Below are positions 313 through 13,399 of a stretch of 13,399 nt of DNA, piece after piece. The stretch is taken from IMG/VR virus record IMGVR_UViG_2698536533_000004; one strand, written 5' to 3'. Below the pieces are notes generated by a model. That model saw nothing but the letters and a program-made list of their open reading frames with translations, did not search any database and was not told the DNA's origin. This DNA is from a virus. Taxonomy: Duplodnaviria; Heunggongvirae; Uroviricota; Caudoviricetes. Both the position numbers and the translations under genes were made by a program. Position 1 is the stretch's first letter. Every line of letters starts with the position of its first letter.

Positions 313-1579
313 ATGGCTGATATATCAACACCCAACCTCGACTATAACGATATGCTGGAGGCGTGGGATATTAACGACGCACTGATGGGCGGTACGCTTG
401 AAATGCGCAGGCAGGGGGAAAATTATCTCCCAAAATGGCCTAACGAAGATGAAGACGCTTATAAAAAACGCCTGTCTGTGGCTACGCTACTTCCTGTGTA
501 TGAAGAAAGCATCAAGCAAAATATTGGGCGCATATTTGCAGAGCCGACAGTATTGAGTGAGGAAACGCCGGCAAAAATCAGGGAATATGCAGAAAATATC
601 GACATGGAGGGGAGCCGACTGGATGTGTGGGCGCAGCAATTTTTCAGCCTCGCATTTCAGTATGGTGTGGCACATGCGCTGGTGGACTATCCACGAACGG
701 ATATGAAAGAGATTCGGACAAAAGCCGATGAAAACGCGACCGGTGGTCGTCCGTACGTTACGATGCNNNNNNNNNNNNNNNNNNNNNNNNNNNNNNNNNN
801 NNNNNNNNNNNNNNNNNNNNNNNNNNNNNNNNNNNNNNNNNNNNNNNNNNNNNNNNNNNNNNNNNNNNNNNNNNNNNNNNNNNNNNNNNNNNNNNNNNNN
901 NNNNNNNNNNNNNNNNNNNNNNNNNNNNNNNNNNNNNNNNNNNNNNNNNNNNNNNNNNNNNNNNNNNNNNNNNNNNNNNNNNNNNNNNNNNNNNNNNNNN
1001 NNNNNNNNNNNNNNNNNNNNNNNNNNNNNNNNNNNNNCTGTACACGAAGAAAACAGGATTTATGCGTGGTACACCGCCATTGCTTAATCTTGGCTTGCTG
1101 AATATCAAGCACTGGCAAAGCCAGAGCGAGCAGGACAATATTCTTCATGTTGCCCGCGTTCCATTGCTGGTNNNNNNNNNNNNNNNNNNNNNNNNNNNNN
1201 NNNNNNNNNNNNNNNNNNNNNNNNNNNNNNNNNNNNNNNNNNNNNNNNNNNNNNNNNNNNNNNNNNNNNNNNNNNNNNNNNNNNNNNNNNNNNNNNNNNN
1301 NNNNNNNNNNNNNNNNNNNNNNNNNNNNNNNNNNNNNNNNNNNNNNNNNNNNNNNNNNNNNNNNNNNNNNNNNNNNNNNNNNNNNNNNNNNNNNNNNNNN
1401 NNNNNNNNNNNTGGCGAACTCCCTCGAAGATGCCCTCGATAATATTCTCCAGATAATGGCGGAATGGATCGGAGAGAGTTGCGGTGGCAATGTGGATGTG
1501 CGCACTGAACTGGATGTATCTGCCCAGGTGTTTGACTCATCCTCCGCGCTGGCTGTTCAGTCATTGCGTCAGGGCGGTN
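313..1579 (+). CDS. Portal protein (3' end lies inside N-run 1580-1836)
   Basis: ATG at 313 two nt after the terminase stop. Long protein-like ORF in three unmasked blocks (313-766, 1038-1171, 1412-1579). Placed between terminase and a MuF-like morphogenesis gene. The coding frame differs between blocks (1, 0, 1), attributed to inexact N-run lengths. Confidence 0.6.
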
Positions 1580-1836
1580 NNNNNNNNNNNNNNNNNNNNN
1601 NNNNNNNNNNNNNNNNNNNNNNNNNNNNNNNNNNNNNNNNNNNNNNNNNNNNNNNNNNNNNNNNNNNNNNNNNNNNNNNNNNNNNNNNNNNNNNNNNNNN
1701 NNNNNNNNNNNNNNNNNNNNNNNNNNNNNNNNNNNNNNNNNNNNNNNNNNNNNNNNNNNNNNNNNNNNNNNNNNNNNNNNNNNNNNNNNNNNNNNNNNNN
1801 NNNNNNNNNNNNNNNNNNNNNNNNNNNNNNNNNNNN

Positions 1837-2824
1837 TGCTCGCCTGCTGATAGCACTGGACAGCCTCGATCCAGGTAGTTTTACCGTTAAGCGCCTGGAG
1901 TCACTTCTGGCGAGCGTCAGAGAGGTTAACCGCACTGCTATTAACAGCATGTTTACCAGTCTCTCCGGAGAGCTGAACGAGCTGGCAATTTATGAGGCTG
2001 GTTATCAGTTAAGTCTGTTTGATTCTATGCTACCTGATTTTGTTGCTGATGTTCACCCTCTGGTTGGTATCTCTCCTGATGCACTTTATGCCGCTGCAAT
2101 GGCGCGACCATTCCAGGGACGACTGCTCAGTGAGTGGGCCTCAGATCTTGAGGCGGATCGGCTCAGACGCATAACAAATACAGTGCGTCAGGGTTTTTTG
2201 CTGGGGGATACCAATGAGCAGATCGCAAGAAAAATTCGGGGACATGTCAGTAAGGGATTTCAGGATGGTGCATTGCAGATGAGCCGGGCTAATGCGGCCA
2301 GCATTGCAAAAACAGCGGTTGGACATCTTGCTGCTACTGCCCGTGAGAGTTTTGCCAGCGCGAATAATGATTTGATTAAGGGTAAGCAATGGTTATCAAC
2401 GCTTGATAATCGTACTACGCCACAATGTCGAATCAGGGATCGCCTCAAATATACGCTGAATAATAAACCTGTAGGTCACAGCGTGCCTTATTTGCAGGGG
2501 CCGGGAAAAATTCATTTCTGCTGCCGCTCAACGGAAACGTTCATTCTGAAATCAGCGAAGGAACTGGGTATTGATGTTCGCGATATTTCCCCGGCTGAGC
2601 GGGCCAGCATGGATGGCGTGGTGGCCGGAGATACAACCTACAGGGAATGGTTTTTGCGTCAGCCTTACACCAGACAAAAACAGATTGTGGGGGAAAGCCG
2701 AGCAAAGCTGATTCGGGATGGTGGTATGTCGCCAGATGAATTTTACACCGATAAAGGCGAATGGCTGACGCTGAAGCAGCTCCGTGAGCGTGATGCACAG
2801 GTATTCAGAAAAGCAGGGATTTAA
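1837..2824 (+). CDS. Head morphogenesis protein, phage Mu F / SPP1 gp7 family (5' end lies inside N-run 1580-1836)
   Basis: About 329 codons of unmasked ORF ending at TAA 2822-2824. Contains a segment KQWLSTLDNRTTPQCRIRD that resembles the conserved D-x-R-T...C region of MuF-like minor head proteins as I recall it. Position directly after the portal is typical for this family. Confidence 0.7.
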
Positions 2825-2843
2825 ATAAATCATTTATTACAAC

Positions 2844-2868
2844 AGGCTACCTTCGGGTGGCCTTTTTT
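2844..2868 (+). terminator. Rho-independent terminator-like hairpin
   Basis: aggctacc (2844-2851) pairs with ggtggcct (2856-2863), giving an 8-bp stem with one G-U wobble and a ttcg (UUCG) tetraloop, followed by a T6 run at 2863-2868. Lies about 20 nt after the morphogenesis gene stop. Confidence 0.65.
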
Positions 2869-2928
2869 ATTGCTGCGATCCGGATGGTGAGCAGCGTAAC
2901 TGTCGGAAGACTTAAACCAGGTACTAAT

Positions 2929-3693
2929 ATGAAACTGAAAACGGTCGAGATTAACGGAAAACAATACGCAGAAATTGATACTGCTGGCCTGCCAGTTTAT
3001 GTGCACGACGATGGTAAAGAAATTGGCTTCGATGCACCGCTGGCGACAAAAAAAATTACAGAGCTTAATGGCGAGGCAAAAAATCATCGCCTGGCTAAAG
3101 AAGCTGCAGAGGAAAAACTGGCTAAGTTTGCCGCTATCGAAGACCCGAAGAAGGCGATCGAGGCACTGGAAATGCTGTCAAAAATCGACCAGAAAAAGCT
3201 GCTCGATGCGGGACAGGTTGACCAGGTTAAGGCAGAAATTACGAAAAATTTTCAGCAGCAATTAGATGAAGAAAAGCAACGCTCTCAGATGCTGGAGAAG
3301 CAGCTTTACGATTCTATGATTGGCGGTAGTTTTGCGGGTTCAAAATATATTGCCGATAAAATTGCGATTCCGGCAGATTTATTACAAGCCCGCTTCGGGC
3401 AGGCATTCAAAGTGGAAGAAGGGAGGATCGTTGCTTATGACGCTTCCGGCAACAAAATTTATTCCCGCGCGAAGCCTGGCGAACTGGCGCAGTTTGATGA
3501 GGCGCTGGAGTTCCTTGTCGAAAATTACCCTCAGAAAGACTACATCCTGAAAGCCAGTGGCAACAATGGCGGCGGCTCCCGTCCGACACAGCATGATATT
3601 GGTCAGAAAACGATGAAACGCTCTGCTTTTGATGCACTGGATGTTGCAGGTAAGCAAAACGCATTGAAAGACGGTATCACAATCGTTGATTAA
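2929..3693 (+). CDS. Putative capsid scaffolding protein
   Basis: ATG at 2929 to TAA 3691-3693, 254 aa. Central region is charged and helix-prone (EAAEEKLAKFAAIEDPKKAIEALEMLSKIDQKKLLDAGQVDQVKAEITKNFQQQLDEEKQRSQMLEKQL), typical of scaffolds. Located between the MuF-like gene and the major capsid gene as in SPP1-type head modules. The ORF-track start at 2857 is a GTG inside the terminator stem and was not used. Confidence 0.55.
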   Translation: MKLKTVEINGKQYAEIDTAGLPVYVHDDGKEIGFDAPLATKKITELNGEAKNHRLAKEAAEEKLAKFAAIEDPKKAIEALEMLSKIDQKKLLDAGQVDQVKAEITKNFQQQLDEEKQRSQMLEKQLYDSMIGGSFAGSKYIADKIAIPADLLQARFGQAFKVEEGRIVAYDASGNKIYSRAKPGELAQFDEALEFLVENYPQKDYILKASGNNGGGSRPTQHDIGQKTMKRSAFDALDVAGKQNALKDGITIVD

Positions 3694-3702
3694 CACATTT
3701 GT

Positions 3703-3722
3703 CAGCTTCCGGATGGGAGCTG
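3703..3722 (+). other. Stable RNA hairpin candidate just after the scaffold stop (no U-tract)
   Basis: cagcttcc (3703-3710) pairs with gggagctg (3715-3722), an 8-bp stem with one U-G wobble and loop ggat. No T-run follows, so it is not a canonical intrinsic terminator. Confidence 0.3.
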
Positions 3723-3791
3723 GTGTCAGGGCTGGATAGCTCATTACTCCATCTATTCACAATTACGCAAATTTTTAAGGAATATTTAATT

Positions 3792-5110
3792 ATGGCTGGA
3801 AATACCCTGACCGGGTTGATCCCGACTATTTATACCGCCCTGGATGTTGTATCCCGTGAGCAGGTAGGTTTTATCCCTGCGGTAGCAAAAAACGCAAAAG
3901 CTGACGCCGCAGCAAAAGATCAGACGGTAACCGCGCCAGTTGCGCCTGAGGCGAAAACCGAAGATATCGTACCGGGGCCGTCAGCTCCGAATACCGGTGA
4001 TCAAAATATTGGCACTGTTGATGTAAAAATTACTAAATCCAAAATGGCACCGGTTAAATGGAATGGTGAAGAACAACTGGCTCTTGGCCCTTCAGGGACT
4101 TACAACACCATTCTGGCTGATCAGTTCAAGCAGGCTTTTCGCGCCCTTGCAAACGAGGTTGAGGCTGATCTTGGTGCGTTGTATTTCGGTGCTTCCCGCG
4201 CCGTGGGAACCGCAGGGACAACGCCGTTTGGTGTTAAAGATGATCTTTCTGATGCTGCTCTGGCTCGTCAGGTTCTGGAGGATAACGGCGCACCGACAAC
4301 CGATCTGCAGATGGTGCTTGGCTCCACTGCCATTGCTAATTTGCGCGGAAAACAGTCTGTATTGTTTAAAGTGAATGAATCCGGCACTGAACAGCTACTG
4401 CGTGAGGGCGTGTTGGGGCGTCTGGAGGGATTCAATATTCACAGTTCGGCANNNNNNNNNNNNNNNNNNNNNNNNNNNNNNNNNNNNNNNNNNNNNNNNN
4501 NNNNNNNNNNNNNNNNNNNNNNNNNNNNNNNNNNNNNNNNNNNNNNNNNNNNNNNNNNNNNNNNNNNNNNNNNNNNNNNNNNNNNNNNNNNNNNNNNNNN
4601 NNNNNNNNNNNNNNNNNNNNNNNNNNNNNNGCCTTTACTGCAAATATGGCGTTTGATCGCAACGCGTTTCTGCTGGCATCCCGTACTCCGGCAATGCCGG
4701 AAGGTGGCGATAATGCTGATGATGTAATGAATGTTACGGACCCGATTTCAGGGATTACGTTCCAGATTGCACTGTATCGTCAGTATCGCCAGGTGCGCTA
4801 TGAAGTTGGACTGGCATGGGGTGTTTCATCNNNNNNNNNNNNNNNNNNNNNNNNNNNNNNNNNNNNNNNNNNNNNNNNNNNNNNNNNNNNNNNNNNNNNN
4901 NNNNNNNNNNNNNNNNNNNNNNNNNNNNNNNNNNNNNNNNNNNNNNNNNNNNNNNNNNNNNNNNNNNNNNNNNNNNNNNNNNNNNNNNNNNNNNNNNNNN
5001 NNNNNNNNNNNNNNNNNNNNNNNNNNNNNNNNNNNNNNNNNNNNNNNNNNNNNNNNNNNNNNNNNNNNNNNNNNNNNNNNNNNNNNNNNNNNNNNNNNNN
5101 TCAGGAGTAA
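3792..5110 (+). CDS. Major capsid protein (interrupted by N-runs 4452-4630 and 4832-5100; 3' end uncertain)
   Basis: ATG at 3792 preceded by taaggaat. Protein-like ORF 3792-4451, continuing as protein-like sequence at 4631-4831 (FTANMAFDRNAFLLASRTPAMPEGG...). The next gene has AGGAG plus ATG at 5114, so the stop is in the second N-run or at TAA 5108-5110. Position after the scaffold supports the call. Coding frame changes across the first N-run (0 to 2). Confidence 0.6.
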
Positions 5111-5113
5111 CAC

Positions 5114-5509
5114 ATGATCACTTACGTGACCTGTGATGACGTTGATAATGCGTTTGGGAACGCCTGGACGAGTGAGAACGCTAAAAATAAAGCTGTTTTA
5201 ATGGCTAATGCCTGGCTTAATGGCTTCAACCTGAAAATTAACCCATCCCGTATTCCGGAAGAGGTAAAACTTGCGGGAGCATATGCAGCCAGAATTGCCT
5301 CATTCGGTAAGTTGTTTCAGCAGAAAAATGATTCTGGCGTTGTTATCAGTAAAGCCGTGTCGGCTGACGGGGTCAGTGTATCGAAATCATTTTCTGAGTT
5401 GCCAGCAAACAGCACTGCATTGCTTGAACCCGATTTACAGCTTGCGATAGCACTGCTGAAACCGTACGGACTTAGTCGCTCACAAGTCAGGGTTGTGAGG
5501 GGGGGATAA
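5114..5509 (+). CDS. Putative head-tail connector / head completion protein
   Basis: AGGAG at 5103-5107 then ATG 5114; 131 aa; stop TAA 5507-5509 overlaps the next start (TAATG). Function inferred from position between capsid and tail genes only. Confidence 0.5.
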   Translation: MITYVTCDDVDNAFGNAWTSENAKNKAVLMANAWLNGFNLKINPSRIPEEVKLAGAYAARIASFGKLFQQKNDSGVVISKAVSADGVSVSKSFSELPANSTALLEPDLQLAIALLKPYGLSRSQVRVVRGG

Positions 5510-5892
5510 TGGGGCTTCGTGAAGAGATTCAGTCAGAGGTTGCCGCTGCTTTTGATGAGGATTTAGCGGACGCCGTGAGTGATTTTTCTGGTTCTTACGT
5601 TACGCACCGGCACTGGGATCCTGTGACGGAAACTGGCGGCGAATCAACCGCAATCTATACCGGGCGAGGCGTGTTGACACGTTATAAGCTGGGCAGAATT
5701 GATGGGATTAATATTTTGCATGGTGACCTTAAATTAACCGCTCTGGTATGCGAGGTTACGGATAAACCAGCTGTCGACCATATTATTGAGATTTATGATC
5801 CTGTATCAAGGCAGTTACAACGATACGAGGTAATTACAGCAAGTGTAGATCCTTCCGCATCAGTTTACTCTATCCAGTTAAGGAGAGCGTAA
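5509..5892 (+). CDS. Putative head-tail joining (head closure) protein
   Basis: ATG 5509 overlapping the upstream stop; 127 aa; stop TAA 5890-5892 abuts the next ATG. Function inferred from position. Confidence 0.5.
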   Translation: MGLREEIQSEVAAAFDEDLADAVSDFSGSYVTHRHWDPVTETGGESTAIYTGRGVLTRYKLGRIDGINILHGDLKLTALVCEVTDKPAVDHIIEIYDPVSRQLQRYEVITASVDPSASVYSIQLRRA

Positions 5893-6238
5893 ATGGCAAA
5901 GGCATGGGATATAGAACCGTCAATATTTGCCGGGATGATTGAGGAAGATGTAGGGCTGAAGATTCGCTACATCGCTATGCAGATTCTTACTGCTATTGAT
6001 ATTGCTGCTCCGGTTGATACCGGACGTTTCAGAAATAACAACCTGGTGTCGTTACAGCATCCCGATTTTGGTATATCTGATNNNNNNNNNNNNNNNNNNN
6101 NNNNNNNNNNNNNNNNNNNNNNNNNNNNNNNNNNNNNNNNNNNNNNNNNNNNNNNNNNNNNNNNNNNNNNNNNNNNNNNNNNNNNNNNNNNNNNNNNNNN
6201 NNNNNNNNNNNNNNNNNNNNNNNNNNNNNNNNNNNTGA
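5893..6238 (+). CDS. HK97 gp10-like head-tail/neck protein (3' end in or just after N-run 6082-6235)
   Basis: AGGAG 5881-5885 then ATG 5893. N-terminal 63 aa include AAPVDTGRFRNN, resembling the V-D-T-G-x-L-R motif I associate with the HK97 gp10 family. End not determinable because of the N-run. Confidence 0.45.
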
Positions 6239-6251
6239 TGGAAAAGACGTA

Positions 6252-6569
6252 TTGTATCCGAACGGGCCAACGTTCGATCCTTCCGGTAAGTTAATCTGGG
6301 CGCGGTTAAGTAATATTCCCGGGCAGGCTGGAGTTAATGAAATTGGCGCGGGGCCGGTTGTTTATCGCACGGGGATAATCATTATTCAGTTATTTGTCCC
6401 CGCAGGTTCTGGTTCAAAACTCATTACTGAGACAGCCGATAAATTGCGGGAACTGTTTGAGTTTCAGGATGACGATCGTCTCAGTTACCAGGCTGTTTCC
6501 TCAATAGCCGTTGGCGAAAAGAATGGCTGGTTCCAGCTTAATCTTCAAATTCCATATCGCGCGCTCTAG
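6252..6569 (+). CDS. Putative tail completion / tail terminator-position protein (5' end may lie in N-run 6082-6235)
   Basis: Protein-like frame open from the gap edge (DGKDVLYPNGPTFDPSGKLIWARLSNIPGQ...) to TAG 6567-6569. The only start codon in the unmasked part is TTG 6252. Function inferred from position just upstream of the major tail gene. Confidence 0.45.
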   Translation: MYPNGPTFDPSGKLIWARLSNIPGQAGVNEIGAGPVVYRTGIIIIQLFVPAGSGSKLITETADKLRELFEFQDDDRLSYQAVSSIAVGEKNGWFQLNLQIPYRAL

Positions 6570-6595
6570 CGCAATTAATGACATAGGAGGCTCCT

Positions 6596-7525
6596 GTGAG
6601 TTCAGGTGCAAAGGTTATCTCGGCATTTATCCGGGAGACGGTTGCAGGCACTACGCCAGCAAGTGGTGACTGGAGTTTATTAAAACGCACAAGCTGGGGA
6701 GTAAAACCCACCCAGAATAAAGGCGAAAATAATGAGATTGGTGGCTCCCGGATGGCTCAGGGGGCGACGCCTGGCACTGTGGATGTCGGCGGTGATGTTG
6801 GTACCAAATTTCGCTGGGGTCAACATGATGATTTTCTTGCATCCTGTTTCGGCGCGGAATGGTCAGGCGATTCTCTGACAATGGGGAATGAGCGAATAAC
6901 ATTTTCTCTGGCGACCTATGCGTCCGATGTCGGAATTGCCTCTGTCGTCAGAGGAGCGCAGGTTGGCTCATGGAAAATGCAGATCCCTAACGACGGCGAT
7001 ATTACAGCGACCGTAACCTTTGCCGGACTGGACTGGGAATCAAAGGCCGATGATACGAATTTTATCAAAGGCGAACCTGTGGATAGTGCAGGAAAGCTAC
7101 GTTATTCGTTTAAGGAGGTTTCAGCAGTAAGCCTGAATGGTGTTGCCGGAGGTAACGGTTTTTGTATCGACAGTTTTGATATTCAGTTCGATAACAAACT
7201 CCAGACACAGCGTTGTATCGGGACTGGCTCGCCTTATGCAGGAGCAAATATTCCGACTACTTTTACACCGTCNNNNNNNNNNNNNNNNNNNNNNNNNNNN
7301 NNNNNNNNNNNNNNNNNNNNNNNNNNNNNNNNNNNNNNNNNNNNNNNNNNNNNNNNNNNNNNNNNNNNNNNNNNNNNNNNNNNNNNNNNNNNNNNNNNNN
7401 NNNNNNNNNNNNNNNNNNNNNNNNNNNNNNNNNNNNNNNNNNNNNNNNNNNNNNNNNNNNNNNNNNNNNNNNNNNNNNNNNNNNNNNNNNNNNNNNNNNN
7501 NNNNNNNNNNNNNNNNNNNNNNNNN
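6596..7525 (+). CDS. Major tail (tube) protein (3' end inside N-run 7273-7525)
   Basis: AGGAGG 6585-6590, 5-nt spacer, GTG 6596. 225 unmasked codons of protein-like sequence. All three frames hit stops within about 15 nt after the N-run, so the gene ends in the gap. Called by position (before the chaperone pair and tape measure) and size; not lambda gpV-like by eye. Confidence 0.55.
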
Positions 7526-7590
7526 CTGAGGCGATTAGTTGATTTTCCGTTATTCCTCCTGTGGTACTGCCCTACAGGGGGACGCATTGA

Positions 7591-8052
7591 ATGAGGTTAT
7601 GGATGTTTATTCTTAATCAGAAAATTATCATTGGTGGAGAACGCTGGTTTACGCCAATGAAGGACTTAAAACCTGTAGACGGGTTAAAACTGTTGGTGGC
7701 AAGCAGCGATAACGATCAGTATCGCTCCCGTAATGCATTAATCCGTCGCCACATTGAGAAAATGGATGCCAGTTTGCACGTCGGAACGAAGGAGTTTGAT
7801 ATTTCAAAGGTTTCCGAGGTGGATTCTGTTGATGATTTACTCATTGATAATGCCGCTCGTTATCTGCTGAAAGACTGGAAAGGGGTTGGTGAACTGGTTA
7901 ATGGTGTTGAGGTTGCACTGGAATATACGGCAGAACGAGGGATCGCGCTGCTTAAGCAGAATCCAGAGTTGTACTGGCAGATCCTTGCAGAAGCAGCCAG
8001 CATCGCCCAGGGTAAAGAGCAGCAGAAGCAGGATACGATAAAAAAGCCATAG
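7591..8052 (+). CDS. Tail assembly chaperone (lambda gpG analogue)
   Basis: GGGGGA 7579-7584 then ATG 7591; 153 aa; acidic protein; stop TAG 8050-8052 lies 4 nt after a slippery heptamer. Canonical position between major tail and tape measure genes. An alternative start at ATG 7657 cannot be excluded. Confidence 0.6.
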   Translation: MRLWMFILNQKIIIGGERWFTPMKDLKPVDGLKLLVASSDNDQYRSRNALIRRHIEKMDASLHVGTKEFDISKVSEVDSVDDLLIDNAARYLLKDWKGVGELVNGVEVALEYTAERGIALLKQNPELYWQILAEAASIAQGKEQQKQDTIKKP

Positions 8053-8582
8053 CTGCCCAGCGGTGGTTATCGGAGTTCGGGGGAGAAAGGGGGGAAAAGG
8101 CAAGATGGAAGCGAGAAAAACTCAGGTTGCCACCGATACCGGAACCAGAAATAGACCCGGTGCTTAAGGAGTTGTTGTACGCCTATTCGGTAATATCCCG
8201 TGCCCGACGTTATGCTGGAATGGCTGGGGTGCCTTTGCCTTTATCTCTGACAGAGATAAATGAATATTTAGCCACTCATCCGGTATTGATTGAGCGCGAT
8301 GAATTTGAAGCAGTGANNNNNNNNNNNNNNNNNNNNNNNNNNNNNNNNNNNNNNNNNNNNNNNNNNNNNNNNNNNNNNNNNNNNNNNNNNNNNNNNNNNN
8401 NNNNNNNNNNNNNNNNNNNNNNNNNNNNNNNNNNNNNNNNNNNNNNNNNNNNNNNNNNNNNNNNNNNNNNNNNNNNNNNNNNNNNNNNNNNNNNNNNNNN
8501 NNNNNNNNNNNNNNNNNNNNNNNNNNNNNNNNNNNNNNNNNNNNNNNNNNNNNNNNNNNNNNNNNNCTGGAGCGAAAAATAA
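7591..8582 (+). CDS. Frameshift-extended tail assembly chaperone (lambda gpGT analogue), via -1 shift at 8040-8046
   Basis: A -1 slip at A_AAA_AAG moves from frame 1 to frame 0. I translated frame 0 by hand from 8046 and it is open with no stop into the ORF annotated at 8127-8582 (…AIAAQRWLSEFGGERGEKARWKREKLRLPPIPEPEIDPV…), ending at TAA 8580-8582. The C-terminal part is largely N-masked (8317-8566). Confidence 0.5.
8040..8046 (+). promoter_or_regulatory. Programmed -1 ribosomal frameshift slippery heptamer A_AAA_AAG
   Basis: Heptamer a(8040) aaa(8041-8043) aag(8044-8046) in the zero frame of the chaperone ORF, two codons before its stop. The -1 frame is open downstream for more than 500 nt. 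Confidence 0.6.
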
Positions 8583-8613
8583 TGCTGACAATCTGACCTC
8601 CTCATTAGTCAAA

Positions 8614-11600
8614 ATGACGCAGGCTGGGGNNNNNNNNNNNNNNNNNNNNNNNNNNNNNNNNNNNNNNNNNNNNNNNNNNNNNNNNNNNNNNNNNNNNNNN
8701 NNNNNNNNNNNNNNNNNNNNNNNNNNNNNNNNNNNNNNNNNNNNNNNNNNNNNNNNNNNNNNNNNNNNNNNNNNNNNNNNNNNNNNNNNNNNNNNNNNNN
8801 NNNNNNNNNNNNNNNNNNNNNNNNNNNNNNNNNNNNNNNNNNNNNNNNNNNNNNNNNNNNNNNNNNNNNNNNNNNNNNNNNNAAGCCGAGAAGGCCGGAA
8901 AACTTGCTGCCGCCCAGCAGGAAGCGCAGGCTCAGGCCTTTCAAAGAATGCTGGACAAGATCGACCCTCTGNNNNNNNNNNNNNNNNNNNNNNNNNNNNN
9001 NNNNNNNNNNNNNNNNNNNNNNNNNNNNNNNNNNNNNNNNNNNNNNNNNNNNNNNNNNNNNNNNNNNNNNNNNNNNNNNNNNNNNNNNNNNNNNNNNNNN
9101 NNNNNNNNNNNNNNNNNNNNNNNNNNNNNNNNNNNNNNNNNNNNNNNNNNNNNNNNNNNNNNNNNNNNNNNNNNNNNNNNNNNNNNNNNNNNNNNNNNNN
9201 NNNNNNNNNNNNNNNNNNNNNNNNNNNNNNNNNNNNNNNNNGTAGAACAACAGAAACAGCTCAATGAAGCAAAAGCTAAGGGGATGCTTTCTCCTGAAAT
9301 GTATGAGGAGCTTTCTGGAAAACTTCGTGCTATGCGGAGTGAGCTTGAGGTTACTCAATCACAATTAAGCAAAACCGGAATGTCGGCAAAACAAACGGCT
9401 TTTGCTATGCGCATGTTGCCTGTACAAATGACGGATATTGTTGTTGGGTTGTCCACTGGTCAGTCGCCATTTATGGTGTTAATGCAGCAGGGCGGCCAGC
9501 TAAAAGATATGTTCGGTGGGATTGGCCCGGCGATCAAAGGTGTAGGTTCTTATGTGCTGGGATTAATTAATCCTTTTACCCTGGCCGCAGCAGCCGTTGG
9601 GGTCTTAGGACTGGCTTACTATAAAGGCTCTCAGGAGCAGGACGAATTTAATAAATCTCTTATTCTTACCGGAAATCAGTTGGGGACAACCAGCGGGCAA
9701 TTGGGCGATATAGCTCAACGTGCCGGGAATGCGGCTGATTCGACAACTGGTGCTGCGGCGGCAGTATTAAATCAGCTTGTGCGTTCGGGAAAGGTAGCGA
9801 GCAGTTCGCTGGAGCAAGTGACGACAGCGATAGTAAAAACGAGCGAAGTAACAGGAATATCAACCGAACAACTGGTTAATGACTTCAATGAAATTGCAAA
9901 GGATCCTGTCAGTGCCATATCAAAACTTAATGATCAGTACCATTTTCTGACACTTGCGACTTATAACCAGATTAAGGCGCTACAGGATGAAGGGAACCAG
10001 CAGGAGGCCGCCCGCATTGCGACAGAAGAATACTCATCCTCAATGATCCAGCGCACCAACCAGATTAAAGAAAATCTTGGTTATCTTGAGACTGCATGGA
10101 AAGCTGTCGCAGACTCCGCAAAATGGGCATGGGATTCCATGCTGGATATTGGCCGTGAGGCCTCCCTTGATCAAAAAATCTCAGATGTTCTCCGTCAAAT
10201 TGATGAAATAGAAAAAAATACCCGACCCGGAGTTTTCGGGTTAGGTGGCATTGGAGATGGCGGAGCTCAAAATAAAAGGCTGGCACGATTAAAGCAGCAA
10301 TTGGGCGTACTTCAAGCAGAAAAAATTGCTCAGGACGTACTAAATTCATCAATAAACGATTACAACAAGCGACAACAGGAAGGAATTGAACTCAGACAGA
10401 GAGCAGATGCCTTTTCAAAACAATATCAGACCCGGGAGCAGCAGAGAGCTAGTGAACTTGCAAAACTGGAAAAGCTAAAGAATCAGTATTCAAAGGAAGA
10501 ATATAATAATCTTATCGCTCAAATAAATGAGCGTTATAAAGATCCAAAGCAACCAAAGGCGAAAGGTTATTCTGATGATGCAGCCCAACGAATGATTGAT
10601 CATCTGAATCAACAGAATGCGTTACTAAGTTCACAAGCTGAGTTGACCGTTAAATTAAGTTCCTCTGAACAGGAACTGGTTAAGTGGCGTCAGCGGATTG
10701 CCGACCTAGAGTCACGACCATCATCGAAATTAACCCAGGATCAGAAATCGCTTCTCTTACACCGGGAAGAAATAACCACGTTGATGGAGAAAAATGTTGC
10801 GATTGAAAAAAATAACAGGCTAATCAAGGAATCCGCCGAAATAACAGCATGGCGTGATTCATTGCAGGCTTCGATTGATAATCGTCAGCAGGGGTATGAT
10901 ATTCAGATTGCTGGTTATGGGGTTGGCGATAAAAATCAGCAACGCCAGCAGGAATTACTGCGGATTGAACATGGATATAACAATCAGCGTCTGCAACTTG
11001 AACGTGACTATGCAGATAAATCCCGTGGAATGTCAGATCATGTTTTTCAAGAGAAAATGCAGGCTCTGAATGATGCTCTGGAACGGGAAAAAGAAATTGT
11101 CAGACAGAAAAACGAGCAGCTCGATATTCAGGCAGGAGACTGGGTTAGTGGTGCCTCCCAGGGATTCAATAACTGGCTGGATGACACTAAGGATATCAGT
11201 GAGCAGATAAAATCAACCACGACTCAGATGTTTGATGGGATGACCGATGCGCTGGGTGATTTTGTCACGACAGGCAAGGCAAATTTTCGTTCTTTCGCTA
11301 CTTCCGTGATTTCGGATCTTAGTCGAATAGCATTAAAGGCTTCAATTACTGGGATTTTCGACAGCATTAGTAACAGTTCTTCTGGGGGGATTTTAGGAAC
11401 TATCGGGAGTGCTATTAGTAAATTTATTCCGAATGCAAAGGGCGGTGTTTATGAGTCTCCGTCATTGAGCACGTATTCGAACGGTATTTATGATTCCCCG
11501 CAATTTTTTGCTTTTGCAAAAGGGGCTGGTGTTTTTGGTGAGGCTGGACCGGAAGCCATTATGCCATTAACACGAACTTCCGATGGTTCTCTTGGTGTCA

Positions 11601-11797
11601 GAGCTATTAATAGTAAAAGTGGTAATGGAGGCGGAGATATTACCTATGCCCCTGTATACCAAATCACTATTCAAAATGACGGCCAGAATGGAGAGATTGG
11701 CCCTCAGGCAATAAAAGCACTTATGGGGATGGTTGATCAGCGGGTGCAGGGCAATCTGTTAAATATGCGACGTGATGGGGGAATGTTAAGTGGCTAA
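8614..11797 (+). CDS. H: Tail tape measure protein, lambda gpH-like (5' region mostly N-masked; true start uncertain)
   Basis: Continuous protein-like ORF from 9242 to TAA 11795-11797. Contains [41 protein letters not shown], matching the lambda gpH segment [38 protein letters not shown] as I recall it, and a C-terminus ([16 protein letters not shown]...RRDGGMLSG) like lambda H. Coiled-coil-rich middle. The ORF track starts at ATG 8948, but the same frame is open and protein-like from the gap edge at 8883, so the start is further upstream; ATG 8614 is the first candidate after the chaperone stop. Confidence 0.85.
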
Positions 11798-12128
11798 TAC
11801 GGAAGAATTTCACTGGTTACCAGAGGATGGAATGAAAACAGAAAATAAACCATCGATAAAAACTGTAAGATTTGGTGATGGTTATGAGCAACGAAGTCCA
11901 AATGGACTTAATCATTCTCTGCGCGTTTTCACCTGTGATTTCAAAGTTGAGGCGAATGAACGTGATTCATTTGAAAAATTTTTAGCCCGGCATGAAGGCT
12001 ATAAATCTTTTTTTTGGCGCCCGCCGGGTATTAACAGAAAAATCAGAGTGGTGTGTCGAACGTGGTCAGCGACAGAACATATCACCTATACCGATTTTTC
12101 GTGTCAGTTTGACGAAGTGGTGATCTGA
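11790..12128 (+). CDS. M: Minor tail protein M (lambda gpM homologue)
   Basis: GTG start at 11790 overlapping the H stop (GTGGCTAA). N-terminus aligns with lambda M as I recall it ([11 protein letters not shown]...KTVRFGDGY against FRWKVKPGMDV...KVRFGDGY), which supports the GTG start over the internal ATG at 11832. Stop TGA 12126-12128 overlaps the L start (TGATG). Confidence 0.85.
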
Positions 12129-12826
12129 TGCAGGACATACAACAGGAAACGCTGAATGAATGCATTCGTGCGGAGCAGTCGGCCAGCGTGGTGCTCTGGG
12201 AAATCGACCTGACCGAGGTAGGCGGGGATCGCTACTTTTTCTGCAATGAGCAGAACGAGAAAGGAGAGTCTGTCACCTGGCAGAGTCGGCAGTATCAGGC
12301 CTATCCCATTCAGGGGAGTGGATTTGAGATGAACGGCAAAGGTGCCAGTGCAAGGCCAACGCTGAAAGTCTCTAATCTGCACGGCATGGTCACCGGGATG
12401 GCGGAAGACCTGCAGAGTCTGGTCGGCGGAACGGTGGTCAGGCGTAAGGTTTACGCCCGTTTTCTGGATGCGGTGAACTTCGTCAACGGAAACAGTGACG
12501 CCGATCCGGAGCAGGAGGTGATCAGCCGCTGGCGTATTGAGCAGTGCAGCGAACTGAGCGCGGTCAGTGCCTCCTTTGTACTGTCCACGCCGACGGAAAC
12601 GGACGGCGCTGTTTTTCCGGGGCGCATCATGCTTGCTAATACCTGCACCTGGACCTATCGCGGTGATGAGTGCGGTTATCACGGTCCGGCTGTCGCGGAT
12701 GAATATGACCAGCCAACGTCCGATATCACGAAGGATAAATGCAGCAAATGCCTGAGCGGTTGTAAGTTCCGCAATAACGTCGGCAACTTTGGCGGCTTCC
12801 TTTCCATTAACAAACTTTCGCAGTAA
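12128..12826 (+). CDS. L: Minor tail protein L (lambda gpL homologue)
   Basis: 232 aa, the same length as lambda gpL. Sequence ([33 protein letters not shown]...CSKCLSGCKFRNNVGNFGGFLSINKLSQ) is nearly identical to lambda L from memory, including the C-terminal Cys cluster. Percent identity was not computed. Confidence 0.95.
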   Translation: MQDIQQETLNECIRAEQSASVVLWEIDLTEVGGDRYFFCNEQNEKGESVTWQSRQYQAYPIQGSGFEMNGKGASARPTLKVSNLHGMVTGMAEDLQSLVGGTVVRRKVYARFLDAVNFVNGNSDADPEQEVISRWRIEQCSELSAVSASFVLSTPTETDGAVFPGRIMLANTCTWTYRGDECGYHGPAVADEYDQPTSDITKDKCSKCLSGCKFRNNVGNFGGFLSINKLSQ

Positions 12827-12830
12827 TCCC

Positions 12831-13399
12831 ATGACAGAGACAGAATCAGCGATTCTGGCGCACGCCCGGCGATGTGCGCCAGCGGAGTCGTGCGGCTTCG
12901 TGGTGAGAACGCCGGAGGGGGAAAGATATTTTCCCTGCGTGAATATTTCCGGTGAGCCGGAGGAGTATTTCCGGATGGCTCCGGAGGACTGGCTGCAGGC
13001 AGAGATGCAGGGTGAGATTGTGGCGCTGGTCCACAGCCACCCCGGTGGTCTGCCCTGGCTGAGTGAGGCCGACCGGCGGCTGCAGGTGCAGAGTGATTTG
13101 CCGTGGTGGCTGGTCTGCCGGGGGGCGATTCATAAGTTCCGCTGTGTGCCGCATCTCACCGGGCGGCGCTTTGAGCACGGGGTGACGGACTGTTACACGC
13201 TGTTCCGGGACGCTTACCATCTGGCGGGAATTGAGATGCCAGATTTTCATCGTGAGGACGACTGGTGGCGTAATGGTCAGAATCTCTATCTGGATAATCT
13301 GGAGGCTACAGGGCTGTATCAGGTGCCGTTGTCAACGGCGCAGCCGGGCGATGTGCTGCTGTGCTGTTTTGGTTCATCGGTGCCGAATCATGCCGCCAT
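12831..13399 (+). CDS. K: Tail assembly protein K (lambda gpK homologue), 3' end beyond the window
   Basis: ATG 12831, 4 nt after the L stop, open to the window end (189 codons). Hand translation MTETESAILAHARRCAPAESCGFVV...VALVHSHPGGLPWLSEADRR... closely matches lambda gpK and retains a JAMM/MPN-type H-S-H-x7-S-x2-D motif. Missing from the ORF track only because no stop falls within the window. Confidence 0.95.
   Translation, partial: MTETESAILAHARRCAPAESCGFVVRTPEGERYFPCVNISGEPEEYFRMAPEDWLQAEMQGEIVALVHSHPGGLPWLSEADRRLQVQSDLPWWLVCRGAIHKFRCVPHLTGRRFEHGVTDCYTLFRDAYHLAGIEMPDFHREDDWWRNGQNLYLDNLEATGLYQVPLSTAQPGDVLLCCFGSSVPNHAA

Follow-up and report, generated by a model that had tools for sequence, protein, structure and literature searches.

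A seam between two ancestries at the M/L boundary

The window analysed here is a stretch of 13,399 nucleotides (nt), one strand, from a Caudoviricetes virus record (IMG/VR IMGVR_UViG_2698536533_000004). All coordinates are positions in this window, and the stretch free of masked letters (N) runs from 9242 to the window end (13399). Judged by its closest genomes, the window is the late-gene region, or late operon, of a full-length Rac-family lambdoid prophage of Escherichia coli, and its intact part carries the tail tape measure gene H and the tail genes M, L and K, the last of them incomplete. The boundary between M and L is very probably a seam between two ancestries in this Rac-type lineage, which would have been created once, inherited since then, and overwritten on its right-hand side by homologous exchange. 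The comparisons below establish that the seam joins two ancestries, where it lies, that it is inherited, and that diversity differs between its two sides.

In the first comparison, the window was aligned to the lambda reference (NC_001416), and the identity was taken in 50-nt windows. The nucleotide identity was 0.32-0.66 up to 12099, 0.72 at 12100-12149, and 0.78-1.00 after that; overall, it rises at 12106 from about 40%, a level at which the sequences are unalignable, to 84-100%. At the protein level, H and M were 29% and 40% identical to their lambda counterparts, against 94% for L and 98% for K (over the comparable part of K), and the nucleotide identity of L to lambda L was 91.8%. An original prediction, made from the letters alone, had described L and K as near-identical to lambda and M and the tape measure protein as divergent homologues, and these values agree with it. 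The lambda-like phages (434, 21, ev099, PhiR63, and others) all started their megablast match at 12106 (query position 2865) with 93-96% identity. Position 12106 lies 22 nt ahead of the M stop. The same prediction had placed the switch at the TGATG overlap between the two genes, at 12126-12130. The position of the overlap was right; the break in homology lies 2-22 nt upstream, within the last seven codons of M, as the identity jumps at 12106 against lambda and at 12112-12124 against other M types. Both the M and L open reading frames (ORFs) are full length with complete Pfam matches, the seam lying inside those last seven codons.

A history without recombination would have H, M, L, and K co-diverging, L and K slowed by purifying selection, and the base composition reflecting gene-specific amino acid or codon preference. 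L and K are in general somewhat more conserved than M, distant loci reach 55% identity in L when M stands at 38-44%, and the C-terminal iron-sulfur (Fe-S) domain of L is highly conserved, all of which such a history would accommodate. We nevertheless regard it as very improbable. At fourfold degenerate sites of codons for the same amino acid, the identity to lambda was 0.22 in H and 0.40 in M against 0.81 in L and 0.86 in K; because the step is seen at these sites, it stems from a difference in ancestry and not from tighter constraint on L and K, and this synonymous-site result refutes the reading. The calibration set comprised 24 loci of other genera (Providencia, Pantoea, Xenorhabdus, Neisseria, Pseudomonas, and others), in which M was 27-44% identical to the window M, L 29-55%, and K 35-56%. 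Since L did not exceed 55% when M was at most 44%, an M of 40% together with an L of 94% and a K of 98% falls far outside co-divergence. The fourfold sites, the calibration, and the lambda base composition given below thus support the earlier reading of a recombination (mosaic) junction at the M/L boundary.

The length of the lambda-like block was obtained from the prophage of E. coli EC2, which matches a 911-nt junction-spanning stretch of the window at 100%. Against lambda 1-24000, blastn returned one segment of 5,074 bp with 94.6% identity (lambda 13407-18474) and no lambda match anywhere upstream of it. The block takes in L, K, and I and runs into J, where it ends about 430 nt ahead of the J stop; its left edge lies 22 nt before the M stop. 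Past the block, the lambda matches in lom, stf, and tfa of EC2 were patchy (78-93%). By this alignment, the window feature marks where a 5-kb tail-tip module begins on its left side. On the right, the block ends (position 25524 of the EC2 locus L003, lambda 18474) inside J and outside the window, and this end is a second mosaic junction, this one within a gene. We take the lambda 18474 point to precede the C-terminal receptor-binding part of J.

Base composition across the seam

The guanine plus cytosine (GC) content also changes at the boundary. The hand counts of the original prediction were exact, with 28.0% at 11831-11880, 38.3% at 10441-10500, and 60.0% at 12181-12240. These stretches are extremes, and the whole-gene contrasts were smaller: 44.6% for H (N-free part), 40.7% for M, 55.4% for L, and 60.5% for the partial K, which had been rightly described as GC-rich like L. 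The GC difference was carried mainly by third codon positions, where the content was 33.6% in M versus 66.5% in L, and this too speaks against gene-specific amino acid preference under a history without recombination.

A single change-point likelihood scan over 9242-13399 placed the break at 12167, and its 2-lnL support interval is given in Table 1. The log-likelihood ratio was 34.7, whereas 200 permutations gave at most 7.25, with a GC content of 44.0% on the left and 58.2% on the right. Successive 100-nt windows at the seam gave 0.42, 0.46, 0.54, and 0.57, the shift being completed within about 100 nt. A gradual profile had been named in advance as evidence against a junction; at the available resolution, the profile is step-like with a transition of about 100 nt. 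The apparent AT islands at 600-9300 (GC 0-0.3) were excluded from the signal as an artefact of scoring N as non-GC.

The lambda left arm has a uniform GC content of 53-61%. Its H (58.9%) and M (55.8%) resemble its L and K, all four genes lying at 56-60%; therefore, L and K of the window have a lambda-type composition, and H and M do not. Gene by gene, the EC2 prophage gave 45-51% for the head and tail-shaft genes, 44-45% for the tape measure protein gene, and 40.7% for M, followed by 55.5% for L, 59.5% for K, 59.0% for I, 56.2% for J, 55.7% for lom, 53.6% for stfR, and 48.5% for tfaR. For annotation, the GC step should not be taken for a prophage end or an island boundary.

Distribution and inheritance of the junction

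We searched 5,426 complete E. coli genomes with a left query (11300-12100) and a junction query (11650-12560, coverage of at least 80%). The left side was found in 721 genomes, in 673 of them with at least 99% identity, and nearly always as a single copy. The junction query was covered in 715 genomes (about 1 in 8), although only 105 reached at least 99% across the junction. In E. coli, a Rac-type M is essentially always joined to a lambda-type L. The L side matched in 4,287 genomes; the median number of places was 2 per genome, and numbers reached up to 7-14. The same junction also occurs in Shigella flexneri, Escherichia ruysiae, and about 10 phage records. By this distribution, the junction is old, shared, and inherited, and not recent or private to this genome.

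An assembly or scaffolding chimera, with two prophages collapsed at a shared repeat, would produce a similar join. The L-K-I-J genes are a misassembly-prone multi-copy repeat in E. coli, as the copy numbers above show, and the window has masked stretches. The identical junction in the 715 complete genomes, in the phage records, and in S. flexneri and E. ruysiae, together with the intact ORFs and the preserved TGATG, leaves this explanation a practically negligible probability; since the join recurs in complete assemblies made independently, we consider it refuted.

The original prediction had named an even match of H, M, L, and K to a single phage as the finding that would count against a junction, a criterion that was poorly framed. 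The stretch is indeed covered at about 97-100% by some 10 phage records and the 715 genomes; their identity is not uniform, at 99-100% on the left versus 89-94% in L. We rejected these records as a refutation because they belong to the same lineage, carry the inherited junction, and match unevenly.

The searches for a Rac-type M next to a diverged L were negative. The DNA search of phages gave no M match above 70% outside the lineage, the next-best M by tblastn in phages reached only 49%, and a scan of one genome per species found the same junction only in Shigella and E. ruysiae, with any other M at 44% or less.

Asymmetric diversity within the Rac lineage

Six Rac-type sequences, the window and five other members, were aligned. 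In the left part (903 nt, the 3' end of H and M), the pairwise divergence was 0-0.8%, or 3.9% for APEC O1, and the last 22 nt of M were invariant in all six. On the right, most pairs diverged by 6-11% in L and 3-8% in K (Fisher p of 1e-8 to 1e-23), and the polymorphism starts at about 12141, just inside L. An L more diverse than M within the lineage is the reverse of what stronger constraint on L would give under co-divergence without recombination.

The relationships of the L alleles follow a different pattern from those of the left side. The L of the APEC O1 Rac-type prophage shared 96.7% identity with that of a prophage whose M type differs, and only 89% with the window L. The window L-K was 96.1% identical to that of phage PhiR63_1, and only 92-95% identical to those of four of the five other lineage members. 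In these alignments, the phylogeny of the L alleles is thus incongruent with that of the left side. Most simply, the block on the right would have been overwritten repeatedly through homologous recombination with other lambdoid L-J blocks.

Two smaller observations concern APEC O1. A highly divergent patch of about 45 nt at the 5' end of L (equivalent to about 12150-12195; …CACATCATGAGACGACACGCCT…) is common to APEC O1 (L006) and to FDAARGOS_1277 (L010), a prophage with a different M type; L itself is therefore a patchwork, with a small mosaic inside it. In addition, the H and M differences of the APEC O1 Rac-type prophage end at about 11995, and 11996-12140, which comprises the last 145 nt or so of M and reaches 13 nt into L, is identical in all six sequences. 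This identity may be the footprint of a within-lineage exchange tract reaching left into M.

M|L as a recurrent module boundary

We then compared the M-L region of seven sequences, namely the window, APEC O1, lambda, an O157:H7 prophage, and three other E. coli prophages. Four M types were distinguished (Rac, lambda/O157, and two others), with 44-60% nucleotide identity to each other and GC contents of 40% (Rac), 57-59% (lambda/O157), and 50% and 53% (others). The L genes beside all four types were at least 88.8% identical, with a GC content of 54-56%. Depending on the M type of the partner, homology to the window begins at 12106, 12112, 12122, or 12124, and genome-wide the matches start at window positions 12106, 12117, 12125, and 12176. 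On this comparison, at least four mutually divergent M types adjoin one L pool here; a step in similarity is general at M|L, and the compositional step is specific to the AT-richer M types.

An 11-nt string across the M stop and L start, CTGATGCAGGA, which contains the TGATG, was invariant in 7 of 7 sequences, and the 33 nt of 12106-12138 were 67-88% identical between M types with gene bodies at 44-60%. On the M side, the conservation is at the amino acid level with synonymous differences (GTG/GTC, GAA/GAC), and the L side is the start of the shared block. Conservation of this kind on the M side does not strongly argue for a dedicated linker sequence. In one M type, a 10-nt spacer with its own Shine-Dalgarno-like GGAGG replaces the overlap.

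It is conceivable, though we consider it unlikely, that M|L is a preferred reassortment point. The stop/start patch (…GTGGTGAnCTGATGCAGGA…) would then serve as a crossover substrate for phage annealases such as Red-beta or the Rac RecT, and the gpM ring, touching the gpL/gpJ hub through a loose electrostatic contact, would allow any of at least four shaft modules to pair with one tail-tip pool. If this were true, the tail tip would be a freely exchangeable cassette across E. coli prophages.

Proposed origin and maintenance of the seam

The proposed history has the following steps. The head and tail-shaft genes through H and M belong to one lineage, with 40-51% GC and without nucleotide similarity to lambda. 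Starting 22 nt ahead of the M end, the tail-tip block (L-K-I and most of J) belongs to a GC-rich, lambda-type gene pool. Recombination of two lambdoid genomes in the ancestor of the prophage lineage would have made the seam, probably once, and the seam would have survived at the overlap of the M stop and L start because both ORFs stayed intact and translationally coupled.

In the assembled tail, the seam separates the 6-fold ring of gpM from the 3-fold hub of gpL and gpJ. In lambda, gpM is a hexameric distal tail protein whose E-loops contact the trimeric ring of gpL HDI and gpJ HDII, the two being "electrostatically stacked" (PMC10721106). In each of the matched Protein Data Bank (PDB) entries, M is present as 6 chains and L as 3. 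By analogy with this structure, the loose contact may let a 40%-identical M work with a lambda-type hub.

The L-J block would later have been overwritten by homologous recombination with near-identical copies, of which most E. coli genomes hold about two. A direct precedent is the homologous recombination of lambda with Rac, Qin, and DLP12 in vivo, and mosaics whose identity exceeds 90% are abundant in the temperate and defective phages of E. coli (PMC3945230). Such exchanges could not pass left of about 12106 because the homology ends there, and the left side would consequently remain near-clonal and the discontinuity sharp. Homologous recombination would thus maintain and sharpen the seam.

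For the founding event, we considered two mechanisms. The first is illegitimate recombination at a random position followed by selection for intact M and L (the Hendrix/Juhala model), which may account for the origin of the seam. The edge is sharp, with no flank of at least 50 bp of intermediate identity, and no Chi site, repeat, or inverted repeat is present at the junction. Furthermore, four unrelated M types end their homology 2-22 nt from the M stop, as a selection filter predicts. The model is summarised in PMC3029335, and about 70% of E. coli phage mosaics were without homologous-recombination traces (PMC3945230). However, the invariant 11-nt string and the 22-nt patch (82% identical to lambda) lie exactly at the seam, where a short-homology crossover is possible, and later homologous exchanges may have erased the original breakpoint.

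The second mechanism, which is possible in our view and viewed with more doubt, is homologous or "relaxed" recombination within the short conserved M end and L start (a Susskind-Botstein/Clark-type boundary), possibly by Red-beta or a RecT annealase. The elevated identity of 12106-12138 between M types, the invariant string, and the reuse of the boundary by at least four M types fit this mechanism. Rad52-like recombinases accept short stretches of diverged homology, and recombination of lambda with Rac takes place in vivo (PMC3945230). The M-side conservation is, however, at the amino acid level with synonymous differences, the L-side conservation is merely the start of the shared block, and the fully conserved stretch of 11 nt is under the minimum of about 30 bp quoted for Red-beta (PMC3945230).

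Several points weigh against a seam created once and then overwritten by homologous exchange. The searches yielded no parent of the left side that has a "native" L, and outside Escherichia/Shigella the nearest M was 43-44% identical; the donor and the direction of transfer are therefore argued from composition alone. That the junction arose a single time follows only from its being fixed in the lineage, and independent re-creation at the same site is possible. The tolerance of the M-L/J interface would likewise follow only by analogy from the lambda structure. The homologous-recombination trace of De Paepe et al. 2014, a flank of intermediate identity of at least about 50 bp, was not present left of the seam, where the identity to lambda in 12000-12099 was 0.42-0.52. 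Beside the seam, only 22 nt have 82% identity to lambda, and conserved C-terminal codons of M (F-[DE]-[EQ]-V-[VT]-x) can explain them. Finally, the asymmetry was measured on a small sample of five lineage members, although it is matched by the genome-wide identity bands, with 673 genomes at 99% or more for the left side versus 105 across the junction.

The seam was also inspected for sequence signals. There was no Chi site near it, the only one of the window (GCTGGTGG) lying at 678-685 in a number consistent with chance, and a search of 11600-12700 found no direct or inverted repeats and no hairpins at the seam.

Gene layout of the window

The features of the window are summarized in Table 1. 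Ten masked runs within 767-9241 amount to about 2.4 kb of N, and ORF calls that cross them are unreliable, including the apparent start of H at 8948. From the offset to the 3,234-nt tape measure gene of ON032529, the true H start is probably near 8564, inside a masked run.

Table 1. Coordinates of genes, junction features, and masked runs in the 13,399-nt window.
Feature	Position	Strand	Basis or remark
H homologue, tail tape measure gene, Rac-type	8564..11797	+	Probable start; ORF visible 8948-11797; 5' third N-masked
Gene M, distal tail protein (gpM homologue), Rac-type	11790..12128	+	GTG start overlapping H stop
Gene L, tail-tip hub protein (gpL homologue), lambda-type	12128..12826	+	ORF and Pfam PF05100
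Gene K, tail-tip assembly protein, lambda-type, partial (runs past window end)	12831..13399	+	Prok-JAB and NlpC/P60 domains
TGATG M/L overlap	12126..12130	+	M stop TGA 12126-12128, L start ATG 12128-12130
Breakpoint zone, last 22 nt of M	12106..12127	+	Start of detectable nucleotide homology to lambda-type and other lambdoid prophages
GC change-point support interval	12111..12182	.	Maximum-likelihood position 12167
Lambda-like block, first 1.3 kb	12106..13399	+	blastn, lineage member EC2 vs lambda
N runs	767-1037, 1172-1411, 1579-1836, 4452-4630, 4831-5100, 6082-6235, 7273-7525, 8317-8566, 8630-8882, 8972-9241		

The H product matched the Pfam families TMP_2, TMP_4, and Tape_meas_lam_C. M matched PF05939 (Phage_min_tail) over the whole profile (1-108 of 108; E=1e-31, 109.8 bits against a cut-off of 39) and chain M of PDB 8IYK (E=2e-25), and a 339-nt M coding sequence is annotated likewise in relatives. 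L matched PF05100 (Phage_tail_L) over its full length (E=1e-98, 328.7 bits) and chain L of PDB 8IYK (E=4e-150). All eight cysteines of L are at lambda positions, including the Fe-S site of Cys173, 182, 205, and 212, ligand residues that are named for lambda gpL in PMC10721106.

For K, the lambda reference is annotated from an internal ATG (199 aa). When 12831-13399 of the window was compared with lambda 14133-14875, lambda lacked one base (GAGG-CTATTT versus GAGGAGTATTT) about 130 nt past the upstream ATG at 14133. The window and E. coli prophages with 744-nt K genes have a longer K, with an N-terminal Prok-JAB domain ahead of NlpC/P60.

Rac-family identity of the element

The best match to the whole of 9242-13399 was E. 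coli APEC17, with 99.9% identity. In EC2, the prophage and its flanks contain essD-rrrD-rzpD, trkG, and ynaK, then ydaY, then stfR and tfaR, followed by sitABCD, uspF, ompN, and nifJ/ydbK; an annotated P22-family major capsid protein is among its head genes. These Rac locus markers were found in EC2 and ON032529, which are near-identical to the window across the junction, the window itself being without flanks. As this gene neighbourhood is that of the Rac prophage, the window is assigned to a Rac-family late operon.

The prophage of EC2, the genome that matches the window best across the junction, is a defective copy, with an IS1 inside the tape measure gene (L003 18800-19497) and a frameshifted tail tube gene (L003 14193-15154). 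No IS1 was found in the N-free part of H in the window. In both EC2 and ON032529, the sitABCD iron/manganese transporter genes lie directly past tfaR at the prophage end (L003 30900-34349) and may be prophage-adjacent cargo.

ON032529.1 ("Salmonella phage SPF_0923") was deposited as a complete Salmonella phage genome and is 100% identical to the window over 11200-12127. It has trkG, sitABCD, uspF, ompN, and a pyruvate-flavodoxin oxidoreductase gene around the phage late genes. The record looks like an E. coli Rac locus with flanking chromosome, that is, a prophage or chromosomal contig and not a packaged phage genome, and its host label is doubtful.

Significance and comparison with known systems

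The seam is a clean example of modular lambdoid prophage assembly and leaves the current understanding unchanged. The sequence is public and annotated in hundreds of genomes, and a limited search of the open-access literature found no paper describing this M|L seam. The added value is modest: M|L is a recurrent boundary for at least four shaft modules, and the diversity within the lineage is strongly asymmetric. In E. coli, L-K-I-J can be viewed as a shared, actively recombining gene pool that sits on at least four unrelated tail-shaft modules. For prophage typing, phylogenies will differ between the two sides of the seam, and for assembly, the right side is a multi-copy repeat. The block is also relevant to host-range evolution, as the exchanged part holds most of J.

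The element corresponds to the Rac prophage of K-12 and its full-length relatives. In the near-identical genomes, the segment lies between trkG/ynaK/ydaY and stfR/tfaR and adjoins uspF-ompN-ydbK. In K-12 Rac, most structural genes have been deleted, and a tape-measure remnant, lomR, stfR, and tfaR have been kept. The present element, in contrast, keeps a complete late operon, and members of its lineage have sitABCD beyond tfaR.

With the lambda tail-tip genes M, L, K, I, and J and their structure (PDB 8IYK, 8IYL, 8K35, 8XCG, and 9E7M; Xiao et al. 2023, PMC10721106), the element shares lambda-type L and K, the Fe-S cysteines, the gene order, and the TGATG overlap. It differs from lambda in M (40%) and H (29%), in the upstream head and tail-shaft genes, which have no nucleotide similarity to lambda, and in the capsid, which is annotated as P22-family.

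De Paepe et al. 2014 (PMC3945230) also dealt with lambda-type phages and Rac and described segments shared at 90-96% amid unrelated sequence, and the shuffling of L-K alleles fits the process measured there. Their assay and figures concern the stf-tfa region of K-12 Rac, without H-M-L-J, whereas the present case concerns the L-K-I-J block of full-length Rac-type prophages. In the present case, the seam has no left-flank trace of homologous recombination of at least 50 bp.

Lambdoid mosaicism has been on record since the time of heteroduplex studies, and its occurrence at gene boundaries was described by Juhala et al. 2000 (HK97/HK022) and Hendrix et al. 1999, and the modular theory by Susskind and Botstein 1978, as cited in passages of PMC3029335 and PMC6379469. 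The M/L seam has the same features: an abrupt nucleotide switch between neighbouring genes, a seam at the gene boundary, intact ORFs, different relatives on each side, and a compositional discontinuity, the last being a supportive feature that such junctions need not have. It is ordinary lambdoid mosaicism, already known in kind and without any difference in kind; this instance belongs specifically to the M/L boundary found in Rac-type prophages.

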